34,864 bases of DNA from a virus. Its lineage: Duplodnaviria; Caudoviricetes. The stretch spans positions 1-34,864 of the IMG/VR virus record IMGVR_UViG_3300022309_000015; one strand, 5' to 3'. Of this stretch, positions 23,795 to 34,864 are shown one piece after another (the first letter of the stretch is position 1; each line of letters starts with the position of its first letter). Below the pieces are notes generated by a model. The model searched no databases. It saw nothing but the letters and a program-made list of their open reading frames with translations, and was not told the DNA's origin. A program made the translations under genes and the position numbers.

Positions 23795-24076
23795 ATGAGC
23801 AAACCCGATCTGAATGATGCGCTATTGGTGGTGCTGCGCGACTTGCAATCCAATCTAGCCGGGGCGCACGGTGGATACGCCGGAGAGTACGCGCTACAGT
23901 TAGCGCGACACGTCTCCGCCCTAGAAAACGCCGTTGTGCTTGACCGCGAGGACTGGGAGGAGGCGCTGGATGTCGTGAAGTTACTTCTTAATTGGATCAT
24001 GTCTGGCACTTCTAAATGTGGTATATGCGCTGCGCGCGCCCGCGCCTTCCTTGAAAAGCATCAGAGCAAACAGTAG
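23795..24076 (+). CDS. Hypothetical protein (93 aa)
   Basis: AAAGGAG SD; CGIC motif; C-terminal ARARAFLEK. Confidence 0.7.
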   Translation: MSKPDLNDALLVVLRDLQSNLAGAHGGYAGEYALQLARHVSALENAVVLDREDWEEALDVVKLLLNWIMSGTSKCGICAARARAFLEKHQSKQ

Positions 24077-24116
24077 AAAAGCAAGCGCCCCCGGAAGGGC
24101 TCCAGGGGCGGCTTGC
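24077..24116 (-). terminator. Intrinsic terminator of the candidate sRNA (may also serve the convergent plus-strand cluster)
   Basis: Minus strand GCAAGCCGCCCCTGGA...TCCGGGGGCGCTTGC followed by TTTTCT. Confidence 0.6.
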
Positions 24117-24159
24117 ACAACGGAGGTTAGTCGTTGGTTCTATGCCCGTCGAGGCGAAC
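24077..24159 (-). ncRNA. Candidate ~83-nt trans-acting antisense sRNA with anti-Shine-Dalgarno loop
   Basis: Upstream TTGACA-N17-TATGGT promoter; three hairpins; loop ACUAACCUC; ends in GC stem plus UUUU. Confidence 0.6.
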
Positions 24160-24165
24160 ACCACC

Positions 24166-24194
24166 ACCATACCCCGATCCCAAACCCATGTCAA
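24166..24194 (-). promoter_or_regulatory. Sigma70-type leftward promoter
   Basis: TTGACA (24194-24189), N17, TATGGT (24171-24166). Confidence 0.7.
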
Positions 24195-25048
24195 GTACCA
24201 ATCGCAACCAAACCCGCATCGACGTAACTCGCTCAAAACAGGCAAATAGCGCAAATTCTCGACTCGGATTATAAAGACAGGTTAACATAATACCCGAATC
24301 TTACTAAGATTTTCAACGTTGTCCACACTACTATATTTCATTCAGAAGCAAGGAGATACGGAGAACCTTACTACGATTCTAAAAAAAAGTGCTTTTCAGA
24401 AATCAGCGTTTCTGCTACCCATTTCCTTAGTGCCAGCTAGACCACCATTGAACCAGACCCCTCTTTCGGGCGGGGCGGGGCTCTTACCGGGGATACCCGT
24501 AGCGCCCCTTCAGGCGGCTGGCGTAGGGTATCCCCCTCCCAACTATTCCTCAACAGCAAAACAACCTCCTCAAATGACCCCTCCGGGTATGGACGACGCA
24601 CGCCTGGCTCCGTAAAGGGCCGCGCACGTCGTCCCCGATCTATCCCCCGCCCTTCCAATAGCGTCCAGTCTCCGGGCACCTTGGGTGTCCCGTCAAGAGA
24701 ATAGCTCAGATAGTGAAGACCGTATATAGCGCGTGGTGGTGTGCGTGTACGCACGGCACCCGCCCGTCTCCATTTCTAGCGCGGGAGCGCAAGAAGCTGC
24801 TCAATAGTATACCCGCGCACCGATGCGCGTCCCGCTAGGCGTGACAGACACGCCGATCGGACTAGCACGCTAGGGGAGAAGAGACCATCCCCTACCTAGC
24901 CACTATGTCCGAATGGACACACTAGCTGCTGCTTACGGTATAGCGTAATTCGTGCATCATGCGCAATCATTGTAGGGCTCGGCCACCATGGCATGGCGTA
25001 TGCTCTGCCGGGGCGGGCGGGCAAGCGTAAGATTCTCTCGATTCACCC

Positions 25049-25077
25049 TTGACAAGTTATGCTTGCATGGATATGCT
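25049..25077 (+). promoter_or_regulatory. Sigma70-type early promoter
   Basis: TTGACA-N17-TATGCT, upstream of SD and ATG at 25095. Confidence 0.75.
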
Positions 25078-25094
25078 ATAGGTGGAGGTTAGAT

Positions 25095-25283
25095 ATGAAT
25101 CCCTGTAAGTGTTATGCGTGTAAGGTTGAGCGGTTGCGGTTGGCGGCTGATGCGGCGCGGGCATTGTCCCTTGCCAAGCCGACAAAAGACAACCGTTCCG
25201 AGGCGCGGTTGGCGGCGGATGAATTGGCGTTCGTGCTAGCGCACGGGCCCGCTGCTGGCCAGCCTGTCGATCACAACGGATAA
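25095..25283 (+). CDS. Early hypothetical protein (62 aa)
   Basis: GGAGGTTAG before ATG at 25095; CKCYAC. Confidence 0.7.
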   Translation: MNPCKCYACKVERLRLAADAARALSLAKPTKDNRSEARLAADELAFVLAHGPAAGQPVDHNG

Positions 25284-25297
25284 CAGGAGGTTAGAGC

Positions 25298-25555
25298 GTG
25301 AAAATTACGAAGAGCATCGTGCTTGGTACAGCCGAGCGAATGCACGAGGATTGGGACTGGCCGTATACGGTTGTCAAGTGCCAGCATCGGCCCGGGTACA
25401 TGTGCATCCGCGACTACGACGCAAGGGGACCTGGGGGGGTGTACCCGCTGAACGGAACGTCTTATACGCTCCGAGAGGTATGGGCTCACCTTAACGGCGT
25501 GGCTGCTGCACTTGACCACGCCGCAAACAAGGCAGACAAGACCGACCACGACTAA
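25298..25555 (+). CDS. Early hypothetical protein (85 aa)
   Basis: AGGAGGTTAG before GTG. Confidence 0.75.
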   Translation: MKITKSIVLGTAERMHEDWDWPYTVVKCQHRPGYMCIRDYDARGPGGVYPLNGTSYTLREVWAHLNGVAAALDHAANKADKTDHD

Positions 25556-25657
25556 CACAACGGGCGGGCATTCGTGCCCGCCCGCCTGTCCGTGGGCATG
25601 TGCCCACGCTGACGAGGCCCACGGGCCGAAACAGGAAACACAAACGGAGGCTAGACA

Positions 25658-25867
25658 ATGGACAAACATGTCCAGATTTCAAGGGACCCCTTTGCGCGCC
25701 ATGACGTAGTGCGGCGCGTGGTCGATAAGCACGACCGCCGCGATTGTGATTGGTGCGGCCGCGAAGGTGCCAAGTATCAGTACGGTATTTGGCCCGATGA
25801 TGGGGGCCCGATGTACGAAAACAAAGTCTTTTGCTGCAAGGGCTGCCACGACAGCTACGGCGACTAA
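25658..25867 (+). CDS. Early zinc-finger-like protein (69 aa)
   Basis: GGAGGCTAG SD; CDWC...FCCKGC. Confidence 0.75.
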   Translation: MDKHVQISRDPFARHDVVRRVVDKHDRRDCDWCGREGAKYQYGIWPDDGGPMYENKVFCCKGCHDSYGD

Positions 25868-25961
25868 CACAAACGGAAACCAGGGCGGGCGCGTTTGGCC
25901 CGCCGGTGTGTGCGCCCGCCCGCTACCCTCCACACACCGGCAACAAACCGGAGGCTAGATC

Positions 25962-26258
25962 ATGCAAACGAAACACACGCCCGGACCGTGGGCACACTAT
26001 CCAGGGGACAGGTATATACGCGACCCCAAAACGGACGCAACCATTGCTTTTGTCTGCCCAGATGACGGGCATTGCGACGAACCGCAGTATATGCCGTGGG
26101 AGGATAACGCCCGTCTCATCGCCTCCGCGCCGGATTTGCTCGCGGCGCTGGAAGCGGTTCTCAAATATCTACCCGACTACGACCGGCTCAACTACGAGTT
26201 TAGGGACGCGGTATCAGCCGCCCGCGCCGCAATCGCCAAAGCCAAAGGAGGTGAATAG
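25962..26258 (+). CDS. Conserved phage hypothetical protein (HTPGPW...NARLIASAPDLL type)
   Basis: KHTPGPW, NARLIASAPDLLAALE and ARAAIAKAKG motifs common in small phage early proteins; GGAGGCTAG SD. Confidence 0.8.
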   Translation: MQTKHTPGPWAHYPGDRYIRDPKTDATIAFVCPDDGHCDEPQYMPWEDNARLIASAPDLLAALEAVLKYLPDYDRLNYEFRDAVSAARAAIAKAKGGE

Positions 26259-26259
26259 C

Positions 26260-26481
26260 ATGGAAAAGGTAACTATAAAGCCGGGGTGTGGTTATTGGGA
26301 TTGCACCAAATATCCCATTGGGGGATGCTTTTGTAGAGTTCCCAGAGATGGCGCGGGGCTTGAGGTGGCGAACGTTCAAAAGATGTGGAAATCGCACAAG
26401 GGGGCGGACCATACCGGAACCACTCCGGACGGTAGAAGCGTTGCCTTTGGCATAGAAGCCACAACAGAGGGAGGTGAATAG
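26260..26481 (+). CDS. Hypothetical protein (73 aa)
   Basis: AAGGAGGTG SD before ATG at 26260. Confidence 0.7.
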   Translation: MEKVTIKPGCGYWDCTKYPIGGCFCRVPRDGAGLEVANVQKMWKSHKGADHTGTTPDGRSVAFGIEATTEGGE

Positions 26482-26482
26482 T

Positions 26483-26731
26483 ATGGCCGTAGAATCTGGA
26501 AAGTATACCTTTTTTGAGCGCCGCCGCTTTGGGGTGTTTATGCGCCCCTGGTTTGCGTTTGGGGCCTATATCGACGCCTACCGGCTAACGCATCGGCTTG
26601 TTAGCTTTGATACAATGCGGATGGATAGCGGCCGCATAGTGTGGATATACAGCGGTAAACTTTGCGTTTGGATTGAATTAGGGTGTGAGCAAACGCCCCC
26701 GCAAACCGTTGGAGAAAGGGGTGTTTGGTAA
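26483..26731 (+). CDS. Hypothetical protein (82 aa)
   Basis: GGGAGGTG SD before ATG at 26483. Confidence 0.65.
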   Translation: MAVESGKYTFFERRRFGVFMRPWFAFGAYIDAYRLTHRLVSFDTMRMDSGRIVWIYSGKLCVWIELGCEQTPPQTVGERGVW

Positions 26732-26985
26732 TGGAACGACTACACAAAGGAACCTATTACAAGCCCTTCTCGTGGCGGGATTATGAGCGCGACAAGCGGG
26801 CGCTTGCCAAGCGGGAACGTGATCGCGAGGAAAGCCGGACAGGTGCGGCCATCGGCTTTTTGGTCCTGGTCGCGCTTACCCTGGCCATCATGGCCTCATG
26901 CACGAAAGCGCCGCGGAGCTATTCGGACATTTCCGTCGAAGCCCGAACCGGGGTGGCCGTGTGGGATACCACAATTGCCCCTTGA
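26731..26985 (+). CDS. Small membrane protein (84 aa)
   Basis: TAATG coupling; hydrophobic segment ending in lipobox-like IMASC. Confidence 0.65.
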   Translation: MERLHKGTYYKPFSWRDYERDKRALAKRERDREESRTGAAIGFLVLVALTLAIMASCTKAPRSYSDISVEARTGVAVWDTTIAP

Positions 26986-27010
26986 CAACTTGACGGGGAA
27001 CGGATAAACT
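26982..27010 (+). promoter_or_regulatory. Sigma70-type promoter
   Basis: TTGACA-N17-TAAACT. Confidence 0.7.
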
Positions 27011-27045
27011 GGTTTATGGGTCTCAAACAACTGGAGGTTAGAACC

Positions 27046-27759
27046 GTGACATACTCGAAAGCCCAAGAATTGATCGGAACCGCCCGCAACCAGCAAGCCG
27101 GAAAGCCCCTCGCAAACAATACCCGGCTGGTACGGGACGGTGACGGGCTTGCAATCCGCTTGCATGATACCAACGTTGTGACCTTCAACCCGGATGGGAG
27201 CGTAACGCTCGATTCCGGCGGGTGGCGTACCGTTACCACAAAGGCGCGCATGAATGAGTACGCGCCCTGCCGCGTTTCCCAGGATCGCGGGCAATGGTAC
27301 GTTTCCACGGACGGGGAAACCCGCGTGGTATACGCGGATGGTATCACCATTATGCCGGATGGGACGGTAACCGGGGCGGGGGGTGATGCCGAACCAGCCA
27401 AAGGCCGCAAGATGGCGGCTGCAATCCGCAAATACGCGGACGCCTACGTCGCCGCATTGTACGCAAATGAGATTCCTACGCCGTCAAACGGCGACTGTTG
27501 GGGCTGCCTTATGCGGGGAGAAAAGGGCGAAGCCGTGATCGCCCATGACCATGTGGAATCCCATATTGAGGAAGGCTACTTTGTCCCGTCGCTCGGGGTC
27601 CGCGCTGTCGAAGCCTACGGATCGCAAGCCGCCAAGATGGTGACATGGGGGCTTATGGAGGGGAAAACTACCGGCGGCTACCTGGCAGAAGCCGCCCGCG
27701 ATCAAATCCGGCGGGCGATCACCCGCTGGTGCAAAAAAGAGTGTGGAATTGCCGCCTAA
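27046..27759 (+). CDS. Conserved phage hypothetical protein (237 aa)
   Basis: GGAGGTTAG before GTG at 27046; LDSGGWRTVTTKARMN motif typical of a phage early protein family. Confidence 0.8.
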   Translation: MTYSKAQELIGTARNQQAGKPLANNTRLVRDGDGLAIRLHDTNVVTFNPDGSVTLDSGGWRTVTTKARMNEYAPCRVSQDRGQWYVSTDGETRVVYADGITIMPDGTVTGAGGDAEPAKGRKMAAAIRKYADAYVAALYANEIPTPSNGDCWGCLMRGEKGEAVIAHDHVESHIEEGYFVPSLGVRAVEAYGSQAAKMVTWGLMEGKTTGGYLAEAARDQIRRAITRWCKKECGIAA

Positions 27760-27770
27760 GCGCATCAAAT

Positions 27771-27796
27771 GCCCGGCCCCATACCAGGGGCCGGGC
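27771..27796 (+). terminator. Perfect 10-bp GC hairpin (terminator or processing element)
   Basis: GCCCGGCCCC-ATACCA-GGGGCCGGGC after stop; no U tract. Confidence 0.5.
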
Positions 27797-27816
27797 CGGA
27801 CCGAGTTAGGCCCTTA

Positions 27817-28185
27817 GAACGCAAACCAGGAGGTTAGAACCGTGGAAAAAAGACTCAAACAAAGGCTAAACCTTGCGCTACAAGTCACCATTAATGCGGT
27901 TGAATATTCCGAGGTAACACCGGGACAGGAAACCACACTTGCATATCTCCGCGATATGCTTGCCCGCAAGCGTTCGGACGACTTCGCCACCGCCCGCGCC
28001 GCCAACTCGCACGCGGAACTAGTCGCGGCGCTGGAGCAGTGCTTGACCGTGATAGAGTTTGAAGCGGCGGCGGCGGGGAAGCTCGAATCGGTCAAAGCAT
28101 CCCCCGGCTACATTGCCGCCCGCGCCGCACTCAACAAGGCAAAGGCCAACGACTAAGGAACGCAAACCAGGAGGTTAGAACCGTG
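27817..28185 (+). repeat. 28-bp direct repeat spanning RBS and start codon (27817-27844, 28158-28185)
   Basis: GAACGCAAACCAGGAGGTTAGAACCGTG, identical in both copies. Confidence 0.9.
27842..28156 (+). CDS. Hypothetical protein (104 aa)
   Basis: Repeat-borne RBS; ELVAALE...AARAALNKAKAND. Confidence 0.8.
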   Translation: MEKRLKQRLNLALQVTINAVEYSEVTPGQETTLAYLRDMLARKRSDDFATARAANSHAELVAALEQCLTVIEFEAAAAGKLESVKASPGYIAARAALNKAKAND

Positions 28186-28512
28186 CAACAGGAACATAAC
28201 GTTTGGCAAGAGTACGACGCAGCCGCAGAATGGTGCGCCCGTCGCGGTATCGCTGGTAAGCCGGGGGACCGGCTTCCGGAGTTGCTTTCCGTTGCCGCGT
28301 TGCGAGAGATTAACGCGGACCCGGACGCTTTCCAGCAGCGCGTGCGCGATTCTGCCTATGCTCTTGCTATGGCAGCGCTGGAGGATCTTGTGGAATGGCA
28401 AGACCCCGACACGCAAAACGACATGAAAACGGACCATCATCTCCGGGTAGAATATCAGCGCGCAACCGAAGCCGCCCGCGCCGCCATCGACAAGGCAAAG
28501 GCCAACGACTAA
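28183..28512 (+). CDS. Hypothetical protein (109 aa)
   Basis: Repeat-borne RBS; MAALE...AARAAIDKAKAND. Confidence 0.8.
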   Translation: MQQEHNVWQEYDAAAEWCARRGIAGKPGDRLPELLSVAALREINADPDAFQQRVRDSAYALAMAALEDLVEWQDPDTQNDMKTDHHLRVEYQRATEAARAAIDKAKAND

Positions 28513-28515
28513 GGC

Positions 28516-28839
28516 ATGGGCGAACAGCTTGACATATTTACCGGCAAGGTAGACCCGCGCGTGCCGTATGTCGCTGGTTCCGAAACGAGCAAGCGTGCCG
28601 CTGATGGTATCCGGCCCCAGGTCCAGCACGACCGGGGCCGGGTACTGGCCTATCTGCAAGCGTTCGGCCCTTGCACGGATCAGGAGCTACAGGACGCACT
28701 GGATCTTGACCCCAGCACGGAACGCCCGCGCCGAGTGGAACTGGTAACGGCGGGACTGGTCTACGACTCCGGGCGGACGCGGCCCACGAAAAGCGGACGG
28801 CCCGCCGTACTCTGGATCGCACGAAAGGAAAGGCCATGA
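28516..28839 (+). CDS. Winged helix-turn-helix DNA-binding protein
   Basis: GPCTDQELQDAL....STERPRRVELVTAGLVYDSGRTR.TKSGR.AVLW, typical phage wHTH. Confidence 0.75.
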   Translation: MGEQLDIFTGKVDPRVPYVAGSETSKRAADGIRPQVQHDRGRVLAYLQAFGPCTDQELQDALDLDPSTERPRRVELVTAGLVYDSGRTRPTKSGRPAVLWIARKERP

Positions 28840-30020: not shown

Positions 30021-30833
30021 ATGAGCAACACTAAGATTTGGGATGCGCTTTCTACCCCGCCCGCATGGGCGCTCAAGGAAATCATGGGTGGACGGCTCAA
30101 GGGCATGACGGACGTTTCCCCGCTGTGGCGGGTACAGGCCATGACCGAACTGTTCGGCCCTTGTGGTATCGGCTGGAAGTGGGAGATTGTCCGGCTGTGG
30201 GTTGACGAAGGAGCGGACGCGCAACGGTTCGCTTTCGCGCACGTCAACCTGTTCACAAGCGCGGCGATGGGTGAGGGATGGTCCGCGCCGATCCCGGGCG
30301 TGGGCGGTTCCATGCTCGTTGAGAAGGAAACCAAAGGGCTGCACAGCAATGATGAGGCGTTCAAGATGGCCGTGACGGATGCACTCTCCACTGCCATGAA
30401 GATGCTCGGGGTTGCCGCGAAGGTATACGCCGGGCAGATGGACGGAGGAAAGTACGCGCAGGCAACGCCCGTACACACACCGACCCCGGCGCGCAAACTC
30501 CCGCCGCCCACACAGGACGAGAACAGCGAGCCGATCCCCGTCCACGTGACCAACGTGACGTGGGAAATGTTCACCCCGCACGGGAAAACCGAGCAGATGA
30601 AGCGGTACATCATCACGTTCGATGATGGGGCCACATACAAGATCATCAAGGAGGAGATGGCGACAATGGCCGCTCAAGCGAAGGTCCACAACCGCCCCGT
30701 GTTCTACTCCACCGAGCAGCGCGGGAAGTACACGAACCTGGTGGCGATGGAATACGCACCGGAACCCCTCGGCCAGACCGAGGAGCCGACCGACCTTCCA
30801 CCCGTACCGAACGACGACGATCTGCCGTTCTGA
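30021..30833 (+). CDS. Rad52/Rad22 (Sak-like) single-strand annealing protein
   Basis: GGRLKGMTDV.P.WR...MTELFGPCGIGW and DEAFKMAVTDALS...K.LG.AA.VY; C-terminal DDDLPF. Confidence 0.75.
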   Translation: MSNTKIWDALSTPPAWALKEIMGGRLKGMTDVSPLWRVQAMTELFGPCGIGWKWEIVRLWVDEGADAQRFAFAHVNLFTSAAMGEGWSAPIPGVGGSMLVEKETKGLHSNDEAFKMAVTDALSTAMKMLGVAAKVYAGQMDGGKYAQATPVHTPTPARKLPPPTQDENSEPIPVHVTNVTWEMFTPHGKTEQMKRYIITFDDGATYKIIKEEMATMAAQAKVHNRPVFYSTEQRGKYTNLVAMEYAPEPLGQTEEPTDLPPVPNDDDLPF

Positions 30834-30845
30834 AAGGAGTAGGCC

Positions 30846-31112
30846 ATGGGACTCGTAACCGACAGCAAGCTGGAAGAAGAACTGGCGTGGATGAGGAAAT
30901 TGATTAACACTACGCAGAGCATCAAAACCACATCGACGCAGCATGCAATGTCCAATATCTTTCCTTCTTACGCTTACGAGAAGGCAATCTCTGTCACCAC
31001 AAAGCAGGCAATCGAGGCCATCATTGACTACCTCGGGATAGAACTGCGCGTTGAGCCTGGCAAGACCGTGCCGGAAAAGGTCGTTGCCAGCAAGGCAAAG
31101 AAAAAGGAGTAG
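30846..31112 (+). CDS. Hypothetical protein (88 aa)
   Basis: AAAGGAG SD. Confidence 0.75.
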   Translation: MGLVTDSKLEEELAWMRKLINTTQSIKTTSTQHAMSNIFPSYAYEKAISVTTKQAIEAIIDYLGIELRVEPGKTVPEKVVASKAKKKE

Positions 31113-31115
31113 ACC

Positions 31116-31415
31116 ATGTGGAGAATCACCGAAGGCGGCAAGGTTACATCCGATGGGCACGATACGGAGGAGGACGCGCTGGAAGCTGCCGAGCAATCCG
31201 GTCAGGCCGTGTGGGAGAAAGGCGGTACCGACCACAACCCGCACCGTGGCATGTACGTGCTCTCCCCCCACGTGGACATCGAGGAGTATGACGACCCGGA
31301 CTACGACCCGACCGATGAAGAACTGGAAGCAATGAACCCGTTTAGTGAAGAACGCTTCGCCCGCGCTTGCGCGGAGCGGCAGCGATTCCTGGAAGCATGG
31401 CGGCTGAAACGATGA
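31116..31415 (+). CDS. Hypothetical acidic protein (99 aa)
   Basis: AAGGAG SD; D/E-rich. Confidence 0.75.
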   Translation: MWRITEGGKVTSDGHDTEEDALEAAEQSGQAVWEKGGTDHNPHRGMYVLSPHVDIEEYDDPDYDPTDEELEAMNPFSEERFARACAERQRFLEAWRLKR

Positions 31416-31600
31416 TGAAGGCAAGGGGCATCAGTATGGACAACGCGATGGTGGTCGCCGTCCGGCGCGCCGTGGCACGGTACAACGCGAACAACCAGCA
31501 GACACCGCTGAACGTATCGTCATACATCCGGCGTGCGGTGCAAGAGAAGCTGGAACGCGACGGCGAAGCCGTGGACGTGTGGCAGGTGGAAACCGACTAA
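31412..31600 (+). CDS. Ribbon-helix-helix-like DNA-binding protein (62 aa)
   Basis: ARGISMD strand and NVSSYIRRAVQEKL helix; ATGA coupling. Confidence 0.65.
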   Translation: MMKARGISMDNAMVVAVRRAVARYNANNQQTPLNVSSYIRRAVQEKLERDGEAVDVWQVETD

Positions 31601-31606
31601 TGACTA

Positions 31607-31737
31607 TCGCGCACGGCGGCGTGGAAGGACACGCAGCCCCAAACGATACCGGATGCAGTGATGTATTCCGCTACCAGTTTGGTACGCACGAGGCGAAAGC
31701 CGTAGAACAGCCGGTATCAATCCCGGCCCGTGCGCGA
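31607..31737 (+). ncRNA. tRNA-like structured RNA 2 (~131 nt)
   Basis: Perfect 10-bp TCGCGCACGG/CCGTGCGCGA stem; CG linker; GCGTG-GAAGGA-CACGC D-like arm; GCCGG-TATCAATC-CCGGC T-like arm. Confidence 0.6.
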
Positions 31738-31826
31738 GACTAAATGGGCGGGCTGGCCGGGGAAGGACGTATCGGGAAGTGCTGTGACCTGGCTGGCCCG
31801 TCCCGCAAACTTGAAAGGAGCAAGAC

Positions 31827-32237
31827 ATGTATGGAAGCATGAAGGAATGGCTGGACGGGTGGGATAGAACCGAGATTGGTTTATATGCCCTGCACAAAGA
31901 AATCGCCAGCCGCATCGACGCGATGGAAGATGATGGTAGACACTATCGGGCGTCCTTCAATGAGGTGTTCTCGCGCCTCCAAAAGCTGGAGCAGTTTTCA
32001 TCCAGCGTTATCAAGGTAGCGCCTAAGCCAGAGCCGCAGGGTGTCTACGTGCGCGAGGGGATGCAGGTGGAGACGAAGGAGGGGAATATATTTACCGTGC
32101 GGAAGAACCATCCTGTTGCTGGCTATGAAGATTGCATCGACGTGTGGCTTTCTAATGGTTCGCATGGGGTTATTCGCAAGGGTGAAATCACCTACGGAGG
32201 AAGGCCTGTTCTTGGATACGTGGAGGACCGGCCATGA
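31827..32237 (+). CDS. Hypothetical protein, paralog A (136 aa)
   Basis: AAAGGAG SD; shares blocks with the next gene. Confidence 0.75.
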   Translation: MYGSMKEWLDGWDRTEIGLYALHKEIASRIDAMEDDGRHYRASFNEVFSRLQKLEQFSSSVIKVAPKPEPQGVYVREGMQVETKEGNIFTVRKNHPVAGYEDCIDVWLSNGSHGVIRKGEITYGGRPVLGYVEDRP

Positions 32238-32620
32238 GCGAAAGCATGAAGGAATGGCTGGGCACGTGGCGCGCAGTACGTGACTACATAAATGAAACTT
32301 TCGACGGGCTCGCCCACCGCATCGACGCGCTGGAGGCACGGGTAAAGTTTCTCCCGTTCATATGCGGGAAATGCGGAGCACATCTCCAGTTCAATGGTGC
32401 GGAGTGTTTCTGCGGCAAGCCGCATGGTGTCTACGTGCGCGAGGGGATGCGGGTGACTGAAAAGGAAGAGGGGTCCCGATTTACTGTAAAAGCGCATTGG
32501 GGCCGATGCAGTGGGTGGATCTACGTATGGACCGATGATGGCGAGGTCGTGTGTATTCACAAGGATGAAATCACCTACAACGGAAAGCCAGTTCTTGGCT
32601 ACGAGGAGGACCGGCCATGA
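32234..32620 (+). CDS. Hypothetical protein, paralog B (128 aa)
   Basis: GGAGG SD; SMKEWL, RIDA, GVYVREGM and EITY.G.PVLGY.EDRP shared with paralog A. Confidence 0.75.
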   Translation: MSESMKEWLGTWRAVRDYINETFDGLAHRIDALEARVKFLPFICGKCGAHLQFNGAECFCGKPHGVYVREGMRVTEKEEGSRFTVKAHWGRCSGWIYVWTDDGEVVCIHKDEITYNGKPVLGYEEDRP

Positions 32621-32838
32621 AGCACTACTGGAGGGACGATTACACGCCACCCCCGATGTGGATTGTGCCAGCGGGGATAGCCAGGGTGCGGTGCGGGTTT
32701 TGCAGCACCGTCCGCGACGAACCGCTGGACGAACCCCTCGGCAAGTGCCCGGTGTGCGCGCAGTGGGACAACCATGAGCTGCGGCTGATGCTCAAGCACA
32801 CGCTCGGCTATCTGCCCGAAGTGAAGGAGAAGCCATGA
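32617..32838 (+). CDS. Small zinc-ribbon protein (73 aa)
   Basis: CGFC...CPVC; ATGA coupling. Confidence 0.7.
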   Translation: MKHYWRDDYTPPPMWIVPAGIARVRCGFCSTVRDEPLDEPLGKCPVCAQWDNHELRLMLKHTLGYLPEVKEKP

Positions 32839-33107
32839 AGCAAAAACCAAAGACACCCTATCAGCATCTACTGGAGGATGCGCGTAAGTGGGCGTTCGAG
32901 GTTGAGCACCCTCGCATGGCGCCCATGTTTCTCTACGATGCTAAAGCGATTGTCAATAGGGTAGGATTTCGTATGGACGATTTGCGGGAGCGCGTGCTGG
33001 CTGCTGACCAGTTGGGCTACGACGTGCGTGTGCGTGTGGACAATGACGGAAATCTTCGCGCCGAATATGTGAAGCGACCGTCTCTAGCGCCGTACAAGCT
33101 GAGATAG
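32835..33107 (+). CDS. Hypothetical protein (90 aa)
   Basis: AAGGAG SD; LRERVLAADQLGYDV. Confidence 0.75.
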   Translation: MKQKPKTPYQHLLEDARKWAFEVEHPRMAPMFLYDAKAIVNRVGFRMDDLRERVLAADQLGYDVRVRVDNDGNLRAEYVKRPSLAPYKLR

Positions 33108-33130
33108 GATATAAACCCGAAGGAGAAGCC

Positions 33131-33352
33131 ATGAAGATCATGCGTGACGGTAAGGAAGTGGACCCGGCGTTGTTCGGCGTGGTGGTGCCCTTGCAGAAGG
33201 GCAAGCGGCTGACCGATACCAGCGAGTGGCCGCCGATGGGAGAGGACGACATGCAGCGCAGCCGCGACATGGTGGGGCTGATGCTGGTAGTAATCGTGTT
33301 TGAAACCGGCATGCTTGTCGGGGCCATGCTTGTAGCACTGTTTGGAGGTTGA
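33131..33352 (+). CDS. Small membrane protein (73 aa)
   Basis: AAGGAG SD; C-terminal hydrophobic helix. Confidence 0.7.
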   Translation: MKIMRDGKEVDPALFGVVVPLQKGKRLTDTSEWPPMGEDDMQRSRDMVGLMLVVIVFETGMLVGAMLVALFGG

Positions 33353-33355
33353 GGT

Positions 33356-33670
33356 ATGAGCGCGAAGCTGTGCAAGGACTGCCGGTGGTATAAGGCGGAG
33401 TGGAAGTTCTCTAGGCCAGACTGCACGCACCATTTGCGCTCTCCTCGTCGCCTGGTCATGGCCATGGAAGCTGTGTATCTACCCCGCGTTCAGTTCGCCG
33501 CACATGACGACATGGTTGTTGATCCTCCGACACCATTTTACCGCACAGAGAAATGGCTTTCATGCGCCCATACGAGTCGGGATCGGTATGGTTCCTGCGG
33601 TCCTGAAGGCAAGTTGTGGGAACCGAGACGCACATTGTGGCGTCGGATGAAAGGATGGTGGATACGGTGA
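33356..33670 (+). CDS. Cys-containing hypothetical protein (104 aa)
   Basis: KLCKDCRWY...CGPEGKLWEP pattern; GGAGG/GAGG SD. Confidence 0.75.
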   Translation: MSAKLCKDCRWYKAEWKFSRPDCTHHLRSPRRLVMAMEAVYLPRVQFAAHDDMVVDPPTPFYRTEKWLSCAHTSRDRYGSCGPEGKLWEPRRTLWRRMKGWWIR

Positions 33671-33942
33671 AGCCGATAGTTTTCAAAGAGCGCACGGGCA
33701 CGCTTGGGAGGCCAGTTGGCATAACGGAAGAACAATGCGGGTCGCTATCAGTGCACCAGACAGGAGAGCAAGTGATTTCGTGTTGGCGCGCGTCGTGGCG
33801 CGAGCGCCTTTCCTTGCTGGTGTTCGGGAGGGTCTGGTTGTGGGTGTGGTCTGGCAACACGCAGCCGCCAGTCACGCTTGAAGCCACGCGCACGGTATTC
33901 TCTTCCCGACGCCCGTGGTGGCGTCGGCTGTTTGGAGGTTGA
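33667..33942 (+). CDS. Conserved phage hypothetical protein (91 aa)
   Basis: GTGA-coupled start; ISCW....RERL....GRVWLWV....QPPV motif. Confidence 0.7.
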   Translation: MKPIVFKERTGTLGRPVGITEEQCGSLSVHQTGEQVISCWRASWRERLSLLVFGRVWLWVWSGNTQPPVTLEATRTVFSSRRPWWRRLFGG

Positions 33943-33945
33943 GAC

Positions 33946-34209
33946 ATGAGCGAGAAACTTAAGCCGTTGACTACTAGTATTCAGGTTTCGTTGTGCAAGC
34001 ATCAGATGGCTACTTCGCGGTGTCCTGCATGTGCAGAGATTTCCAATGCCCGCCGCGAGGCGTTCGAGGAGTGCATTATGATTGCGGAGCCACAGCCCGG
34101 ACCAGAGCCTAGAGATTTTCAGGCATACCGAATACAAGTATCAACGCAAAGATGGATCGCTGATGCTCTCCGCGCCCGCCTAGCCGAACTGGAGAAGGAG
34201 AAGCCATGA
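33946..34209 (+). CDS. Hypothetical protein (87 aa)
   Basis: GGAGG SD; shares RREAFEECI and LRARLAELEKEKP with the next gene. Confidence 0.7.
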   Translation: MSEKLKPLTTSIQVSLCKHQMATSRCPACAEISNARREAFEECIMIAEPQPGPEPRDFQAYRIQVSTQRWIADALRARLAELEKEKP

Positions 34210-34526
34210 GTACGCAGGAAGAACGAGAACGGGCGCTGAAGGTAGTTCTAAATGATCTGGAGTGCAACATCGATGGTGTTCCCTCCAGTTACGACGACAC
34301 AATTAGAGCGCAGATGCGCGGGCATATCGAAACCCTCCGCGACCGCGTCCGTGAGGAGCATGAGCGGATGGAACGTAAAGTCCGCCGCGAGGCGTTCGAG
34401 GAGTGTATCAGGATTGCGGAGACAACTCCGCTGGTACAGTTGTCACCTTTGGCAGACCGGCAGCAGGCCGCGATTACCTCCAACCTCCGCGCCCGCCTAG
34501 CCGAACTTGAGAAGGAGAAGCCATGA
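34206..34526 (+). CDS. Hypothetical protein (106 aa)
   Basis: AAGGAG SD; ATGA coupling. Confidence 0.75.
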   Translation: MSTQEERERALKVVLNDLECNIDGVPSSYDDTIRAQMRGHIETLRDRVREEHERMERKVRREAFEECIRIAETTPLVQLSPLADRQQAAITSNLRARLAELEKEKP

Positions 34527-34762
34527 GCGACGACGTTGAATATTTCCGCACCTATATGATGATGAGGGTGGAGCGCGAGCGTGCCTATGCCGAGTACCTC
34601 CAAGCGTCAACATCGTTGGAGTTGGCGTGGGTGCATGAGCGAGCGGCTGAGTTGGCGAGCCAGAGCGAGCCGCTTGAGACGGCGTGCGGACTGATGGATA
34701 AGCGCGCCCTCGCCATAGCGGCAGCCAAATACGTCGCATTCGGGAAAAAGATACAACCCTGA
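34523..34762 (+). CDS. Hypothetical protein (79 aa)
   Basis: AAGGAG SD; ATGA coupling. Confidence 0.7.
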   Translation: MSDDVEYFRTYMMMRVERERAYAEYLQASTSLELAWVHERAAELASQSEPLETACGLMDKRALAIAAAKYVAFGKKIQP

Positions 34763-34772
34763 AGGAGAAGCC

Positions 34773-34864
34773 ATGAAGTACGCAATGCTTGCCGCAGTTT
34801 TCGTGATGCTGATTGCCCCGGTGCGTTTTGTCGGGTTTCCAGATCTGGAACCGCGCACGTCGCC
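34773..34864 (+). CDS. Partial CDS with signal-peptide-like N-terminus
   Basis: AAGGAG SD; MKYAMLAAVFVMLIAP...; runs off the window. Confidence 0.6.
   Translation, partial: MKYAMLAAVFVMLIAPVRFVGFPDLEPRTS

Follow-up and report, generated by a model that had tools for sequence, protein, structure and literature searches.

A predicted phage RNA that mirrors a ribosome-site motif shared by early genes

Introduction

How phages without a polymerase of their own turn off their early genes, while the host-type promoters of these genes are still firing, is poorly understood. Phage small RNAs, as characterized in the consulted portion of a 2025 review (PMC12197685), regulate a single gene in cis or, in trans, chiefly genes of the host; the review further has a table of 38 RNAs without an assigned function, which may bear on the novelty of the RNA proposed below.

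The DNA analysed here (34,864 nucleotides of a phage record, termed the window) carries its terminase, portal and major head genes on the minus strand and small genes on the plus strand. A contig of 43,441 bp (L118) is 99.9% identical to it, so that the window is missing ~8.5 kb of a 43.4-kb genome. Window DNA is present in sediment, marine and estuary sequencing runs; no RNA dataset was among the runs listed. Positions 24077-25048 form a non-coding kilobase between a short plus-strand operon and two host-type early promoters (at 25049 and 26982). The original prediction, made from the sequence alone, placed at its edge a short minus-strand RNA that would silence at least seven early genes at their ribosome-binding sites, in a timing, lysogeny or immunity switch.

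Results

A short predicted transcription unit on the minus strand

The gap begins with a compact unit on the minus strand (Table 1). Its two promoter hexamers, recovered by pattern scan, match the consensus at 10 of 12 positions and stand where the original prediction had placed them. Folding of positions 24075-24159 (minus strand) likewise reproduced the predicted succession: first a 5' hairpin, then a hairpin of 5 bp whose loop has 9 nt, and last the long stem of a terminator, at -39.1 kcal/mol (z -4.57; as stable in 0 of 200 shuffles), and the U tract of the terminator abuts the stop codon of the convergent gene (24076), as claimed. Within the seed hairpin, UAACCU is ~90% unpaired in the predicted fold. 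As judged by pattern scan and folding only, the unit has what characterizes trans-encoded small RNAs: a promoter of its own, an intrinsic terminator, a length of 50-150 nt and an exposed seed.

Table 1. Features of the unit, its surroundings and its predicted targets in the window.
Feature	Position	Strand	Basis or remark
-35 hexamer TTGACA, predicted RNA promoter	24189..24194	-	pattern scan
-10 hexamer TATGGT, 17-nt spacer	24166..24171	-	pattern scan
Predicted ~83-nt RNA	24077..24159	-	start inferred from -10 position
5' hairpin; GCCTC and GCATAGA common to L116 unit	24137..24159	-	folding, alignment
Seed hairpin, 5-bp stem, 9-nt loop 24131-24123	24118..24136	-	folding
Intrinsic terminator, stem and U tract (24080-24077)	24077..24116	-	ends at stop codon of convergent gene
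Convergent gene, 93 aa	23795..24076	+	replaced in co-occurring variants (junction 24073), unit kept
46-aa TTG ORF behind plus-strand motif copy (rival reading)	24134..24274	+	no homologue found
Early sigma-70-type promoter	25049..25077	+	first gene downstream bears motif
Second early sigma-70-type promoter	26982..27010	+	first gene downstream bears motif
Predicted target GGAGGTTAG, gene 25095	25084..25092	+	complementarity
Predicted target GGAGGTTAG, gene 25298	25286..25294	+	complementarity
Predicted target GGAGGCTAG, gene 25658	25646..25654	+	complementarity
Predicted target GGAGGCTAG, gene 25962	25950..25958	+	weakest, rank 20 of 46
Predicted target GGAGGTTAG, gene 27046	27033..27041	+	rank 1 of 46
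Predicted target GGAGGTTAG, gene 27842	27829..27837	+	complementarity
Predicted target GGAGGTTAG, gene 28183	28170..28178	+	complementarity
Possible extra targets, two GGAGGTGAATAG sites (26247, 26470), genes 26260 and 26483	26247..26481	+	strong predicted binding

Summed contig depth rises ~1.7-fold from 24600 to 24960 in sequencing run X2, and to ~24860 in run X1, which hints at genome ends or terminal repeats around 24600-24960, and can only hint at them because contig depth is not copy number. If the ends lie there, the unit would sit ~0.5 kb inside the right end, facing inward, and the early genes would begin at the left end. The unit, 855 bp from the early promoter, had been described as transcribed divergently from it; because the probable genome ends separate the two, this description holds only for the circular or concatemeric form. 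A strain bubble at 24596-24764 accompanies the deeper stretch, and an A+T-rich patch at 24240-24430, where promoter-like sites on both strands overlap (three, at 24282 +, 24316 - and 24325 -), is possibly an origin, or a second promoter for a longer RNA.

The loop is complementary to a motif at early gene starts

The motif GGAGG(C/T)TAG occurs eight times in the window, always on the plus and never on the minus strand: GGAGGTTAG begins at 24122 within the unit and, together with its variant GGAGGCTAG, at the seven early sites in Table 1, each of which precedes a start codon that opens an ORF. In 200 order-4 Markov genomes, chance copies averaged 0.155 and never exceeded two, against the eight observed, and there was no copy in the late genes of the window or in record G003, which covers late genes and most of the missing part. 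The claim that seven early genes share this tag at their ribosome-binding sites, five in the exact and two in a variant form, is borne out by these counts.

Loop-displayed anti-Shine-Dalgarno seeds are used by RNAs such as S. aureus RNAIII. In the window, the seed complements GGAGG(C/T)TAG and, in part, the AAC upstream of the tag, in agreement with the pairing extension proposed originally; the single mismatch claimed for genes 25658 and 25962 is present at their GGAGGCTAG sites and can be specified as a central A-C. The TAG of the motif, as had been argued, is not accounted for by the host ribosome, because GGAGGTGA, the match to the canonical 16S tail, is found at other genes of the window (15661 among the late genes, 26260 and 26483 among the early ones); TTAG is the most frequent 4-mer after GGAGG (6 of 79 sites).

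When 46 curated starts of the window (one placed one base off) were ranked by net predicted binding of the whole RNA, the nine best all fell within 25095-28516. Six of the seven tagged genes are among these nine, joined by gene 28516 and the two GGAGGTGAATAG genes, whereas gene 25962 came only 20th. By predicted binding, the proposed target set holds for six genes, is weakest for the seventh, and may extend to two early genes that it had not included (26260 and 26483).

Several other elements lie among these genes. A second repeated ribosome-site motif, AAGGAGAAG(CC), precedes five to six middle genes at 30021-34773 (+), and no mirror unit was found for it. Genes 27842 and 28183 have near-identical leaders (27817-27847, 28158-28188) and 3' ends (28115-28158, 28471-28514), a sign of cassette duplication. 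Just 5' of the tagged site at 25646, positions 25583-25637 (+) match the Type III hammerhead ribozyme (39.6 bits, E 2.4e-5, below the gathering score of 48.5) with a core that looks intact; an 88.5% identical copy lies upstream of an early gene in a related fragment (L120, 1081-1141), and one variant contig skips 25560-25878, spanning the match. The stretch just before the tagged site at 25950 (25881-25940, +) contains two perfect stems of ~10 bp that cross each other, the pattern of an H-type pseudoknot.

Two relatives carry seed-tag pairs of their own

Relatives were gathered by a terminase profile (13 loci) and a portal profile (21 loci, partly overlapping). In L116, whose terminase is 39% identical to that of the window, a unit adjoining the terminase gene runs from TTGACA-17-TACATT through a 5' hairpin and the seed CTCCTTTCGGGT to a terminator, and the repeated ribosome-site motif of this phage, ACCCGAAAGGA, is the complement of that seed. 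Sites of the form ACCCG..GGA on the target strand precede early starts in five of five cases, two of them being the exact 11-nt complement; an automated rank test returned only one L116 target ORF. Outside the seed, the window and L116 units align with a score of 50, against 20.8 ± 6.1 in shuffles (0 of 2000).

Among 27 other terminator segments the highest score was 39.5, and the segment at the top, picked by terminator likeness before targets were inspected, is a third unit, in the complete relative G001 (terminase 42% identical). It has TTGACA-17-TAGATT at 1631 and a U/C-rich seed that is unpaired, and its terminator, like that of the window unit, meets a convergent gene, whose stop codon is overlapped by the U tract. 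The G001 motif, GGAAAGGAA, is complementary to this seed and lies at starts in all four of its copies, with none in the window and none in L116; the seed matches six starts by 8-12 nt, including the first genes after three promoters. GGAGG(C/T)TAG is in turn absent from L116, G001 and L120. A table of tags against phages is diagonal for the window and G001 tags; the L116 11-mer is not private, occurring once at a start in the window and once in G001. GAAAGGA, the core that the L116 and G001 motifs have in common, is itself a sequence of ribosome type. In both relatives, the seed has changed together with the phage's own ribosome-site motif, and the comparison of loop and motif that the original prediction had proposed therefore turned out in its favour.

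The three units also agree in strand. On the mirror strand, each has a 10/12 promoter at a fitting distance; the G-U pairs favour the same strand, and the promoter strand folds better throughout (z -4.57 vs -2.24 in the window, -3.67 vs -1.57 and -4.58 vs -0.79 in the relatives). Among the three terminators (n = 3 sequences), 39 of 42 cells pair and 3 of 14 pairs have changed on both sides, which 23 of 500 shuffles reach; homology of the units rests on short GC-rich stems, and convergence may explain them instead. Their placement varies: the window unit faces inward at the probable right end, the L116 unit adjoins the terminase and faces outward, and the G001 unit closes the late operon, ~11 kb from the nearest early promoter. 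The first gene behind strong promoters is tagged in two of two cases in the window and two of two in L116, as it is behind three of five early or middle promoters in G001.

These comparisons bear on three other readings of the site. The motif copy at 24122 might be the ribosome-binding site of a real 46-aa gene with a TTG start at 24134, as its spacing equals that of gene 25298, and a false positive of the same kind arose elsewhere (G009, see below); opposite the window unit, and also opposite that of L116, the other strand offers a start codon whose spacing would serve. However, the 46-aa ORF lacks a detectable homologue, its TTG is the 3' arm of the hairpin, and it runs across the promoter; the opposite-strand ORF of L116 is unrelated to it, and G001 has no equivalent. 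This reading, which the original prediction had named as its own refutation, is weakened because no start codon lies within 26 nt on the strand opposite the G001 unit, and we regard it as extremely doubtful.

All three seeds contain CCUCC or UCCUUUC, which we take, from the canonical 16S tail, to be an anti-Shine-Dalgarno core, and the RNA could on this ground be a mimic of the 16S tail aimed mainly at host messages, shutting off host translation. Past this core, however, the flanks follow each phage's own tags, so that the phage's genes would be hit hardest, and a host-directed mimic appears highly improbable.

Alternatively, the tag could bind a protein, either a translational repressor or a stoperator-like DNA-binding protein, with the extra copy serving as a decoy on plus-strand read-through RNA or on DNA. 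The plus strand also folds into a hairpin with GAGG in its loop, its lack of a U tract here leads one to expect read-through, and the consulted text of PMC3203893 leaves a protein partner open for the comparable sequences of cluster K phages. Against such a decoy, the promoter faces the opposite way, minus-strand folding is favoured in three phages, and the tags differ widely among relatives, a change that an RNA seed would follow more easily than a protein; we hold it to be very unlikely.

The relatives contain further structured elements: a tRNA gene in G001 (L176, 19468-19539, +); a 146-nt segment near the genome end of G001 (L113, 6755-6900, -) with four long perfect hairpins and a long T run behind TTGACA (z -10.5); and, in G002, a long structured leader behind TTGACA (L145, 3770-3955, -), where pairing is possible between CTAGCCTCCCGC and, further downstream, a GCGGGAGGC that immediately precedes a gene start, and which from its sequence would be riboswitch-like or attenuator-like.

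Units with several matching starts are rare elsewhere

With a detector whose thresholds were fixed after two of the units were already known, 113 unrelated loci (1.32 Mb), many of them selected for a promoter followed by an anti-Shine-Dalgarno 9-mer, yielded 37 distinct units, none with a 9-nt target (0 of 37); under an earlier version, none of 30 background units had at least two 8-nt targets. In 12 further unrelated whole or partial records, 2 of 19 units had at least two 9-nt targets, at 0.45 and 0.10 targets per 10 kb versus 0.96-2.18 for the three family units. The unit at 0.45 per 10 kb (G009) is the reverse of a real-looking gene start and shows that false positives do occur. Three unrelated viral contigs (L105, L110 and L025, in G020, G021 and G023) also combine a promoter, an anti-Shine-Dalgarno 9-mer and a terminator; the G023 unit has 15 weak 8-nt matches in 191 kb, and those of G020 and G021 have none or one.

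Within the family, no unit was found in four of seven records (L111, L120, G013 and G002, all fragments of 9-32 kb); in L120, two copies of AAACGGAGGA stand at early starts, and the 12 kb examined contain no unit that mirrors it. Wider searches added no further case. The exact 19-nt hairpin had no match in viral contigs, a promoter followed by CTARCCTCC was found at 95 loci, none with more than two motif copies, a promoter followed by the L116 seed at 18 loci, with several targets in L116 only, and the motif was absent from 15 loci with a relative of gene 27046. A single-sequence terminase scan gave no matches; terminase matches among GenBank phages were all below 60% identity (22-25% for the best listed), with no DNA match over 25% of the unit, and prokaryote genomes contained only distant terminases (22-28%). 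A covariance model built from the three units, run against 52 sources, recovered only its training sequences and one match at E 0.39.

Genes change behind the tag while the unit is kept

Contigs of co-occurring strains join different genes directly behind the tag, with loose ends at 25294, 25655, 25959 and 25963, and add a further tagged site behind 25084; variants also swap the convergent gene and yet keep the unit. Contig pieces spanning the unit in runs X2 and X5 show no difference inside it among the differences listed, and one X1 variant contig differs somewhere in 24178-24223, a span covering the -35 box.

Retention of the tag while genes change fits a regulatory tag and a recombination handle alike. 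Under the latter reading there would be no functional RNA: the unit would be an ordinary terminator or boundary and its plus-strand motif the leftover of a cassette-swap junction, and indeed the copy at 24122 has the same orientation as the other seven and the same spacing to a start codon. The relatives speak against this, as the L116 copy cannot be a stray sense copy because it is inverted relative to its targets, the G001 copy lies far from any early promoter with no start codon behind it, and all three mirror strands share the promoter and G-U features described above. We consider a mere recombination handle quite improbable.

Comparison with known phage RNAs

In how it would work, the window unit is like the C4 RNA of phages P1 and P7, whose target is an immunity operon, yet it falls outside the C4 family: a search against 4227 Rfam families, with E up to 1, gave no match at 24077-24194, and there was no C4 match at gathering score in L116 or L175. 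As described in the available portion of PMC5320573, C4 resembles the unit in being phage-made, in its size (~77-83 nt for the two), in covering ribosome sites by loop pairing, in a specificity set by flanking sequence, and in loops and targets that change together between relatives (for the unit, by sequence only). It differs in that C4 is cut by RNase P, has three stems and pairs through two loops, a' and b', whereas the unit has its own terminator, a 5' hairpin and one seed, along with seven or more dispersed predicted target genes and no sign of a temperate cycle.

The C4 parallel suggests another purpose for the same RNA and pairing, namely exclusion, in which the RNA of a resident phage silences incoming kin and seed-tag pairs are immunity types, as in P1/P7. 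The three relatives do have three different seed-tag pairs, and in the same portion of PMC5320573 a 4-nt change in the C4 loop and targets restricts cross-action. The 55 window proteins scanned (from a window missing ~8.5 kb of 43.4 kb) include, however, no match to an integrase, repressor or antirepressor, and a phage must express its own tagged genes, so that a time lag would be needed and exclusion would become a by-product of shut-off. As a main purpose, exclusion seems unlikely, and the lysogeny switch entertained originally finds no support in these 55 proteins.

Among the other phage RNAs that the consulted part of PMC12197685 covers, sar (P22), OOP and aQ (lambda) and STnc6030 (BTP1) pair with phage genes and so repress them, in some cases to set timing or to exclude other phages, but each overlaps a single cis target gene, whereas the unit overlaps none of its predicted targets. 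PreS, VpdS and DicF are trans-acting with several targets, as the unit would be, but these are mostly host targets, and no tag shared among the phage's own ribosome sites is described there. In the open literature, to which the search was confined (subscription papers lay outside its scope), we found no account of a phage RNA that mirrors a tag common to several ribosome sites.

A partial parallel in cluster K phages

The tag itself has a counterpart in the start-associated sequences (SAS) of cluster K mycobacteriophages and cluster EF Microbacterium phages, which, in the consulted parts of PMC3203893, PMC7302621 and PMC11373665, are over-conserved asymmetric motifs at ribosome sites of non-structural genes, with one copy away from starts; their function is described as unknown up to 2024. 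The window follows this pattern, its tags outside the unit all standing at early starts and none in late genes or G003, but with a motif that is neither the cluster K nor the EF consensus.

In Anaya and Adephagia, a single reversed SAS occupies the 10-nt loop of a hairpin (58685-58694 in Adephagia; z -5.45 and -7.80 for the regions) within a non-coding gap, at ~950 bp from the right end, and Adephagia late transcription appears, from the consulted part of PMC11373665, to start in the gap that holds it. The cluster K loop is thus within a long late leader, whereas the window has a short terminated unit. Sequences matching the gap occur in 186 records, and in an alignment of 10 phages its stems remain paired. 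Across 14 cluster K phages chosen to span divergence, the reversed-SAS loop is exact in four, a weaker C/U loop in four and absent in six, while the SAS itself is unchanged in nine of nine phages checked; a covarying tag, sought in those with degenerate loops, was not found, their SAS being unchanged. The cluster EF phage AnnaSerena has 10 forward SAS copies and no reverse copy. Cluster K is therefore a striking but partial parallel to the window unit, not proof. In all 14 phages (JF704106 59760-59910 and its cluster K equivalents, L186-L199), a conserved TAGACT box precedes two hairpins, a small one (GCAC-loop-GTGC) and a long GC-type one, together a candidate late promoter and structured late leader.

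Discussion

Taken together, these comparisons of sequence and predicted structure make it probable that the unit is the gene of a trans-acting RNA of ~83 nt, whose loop mirrors the tag in early ribosome-binding sites and which is predicted to block the translation of these genes as a group. The RNA would be made by the sigma-70 polymerase of the host; its loop would nucleate on GGAGG, upon which the 5-bp stem would open and pairing would spread over TAG and the upstream AAC, keeping ribosomes from the tagged sites. Because the first gene behind strong promoters bears the tag, such a block could also silence downstream genes by polarity.

The purpose that we favour is a shut-off of early translation, because the early promoters are host-type, the first gene behind them is tagged, and the 55 window proteins scanned gave no match to a phage RNA polymerase or a repressor. 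Host-type early promoters would keep firing, and the RNA would turn the production of early proteins into a pulse, with the delay arising from accumulation of the RNA, from late entry of the right end, or from a boost by late transcription or read-through (as in G001). A new gene cassette landing behind the tag would join the regulon, and kin might be excluded as a by-product.

More tentatively, and with somewhat less confidence than doubt, we suggest a general tag-and-mirror switch, in which a private Shine-Dalgarno extension marks the early class and one movable RNA mirror shuts this class off, with no repressor protein; tag and mirror would drift together, the unit would move, and swapped-in genes would join behind the tag. 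The same logic would explain the SAS of cluster K, unexplained since 2011, through a mirror loop in the late leader RNA.

If this is true, a single RNA that recognizes one tag at many ribosome sites would be an economical solution to the problem of early-gene turn-off, and one predictable from sequence alone. The role of the cluster K start-associated sequences would become a directly testable question in cultured Adephagia, and the three natural seed-tag pairs would be ready-made orthogonal translation switches.
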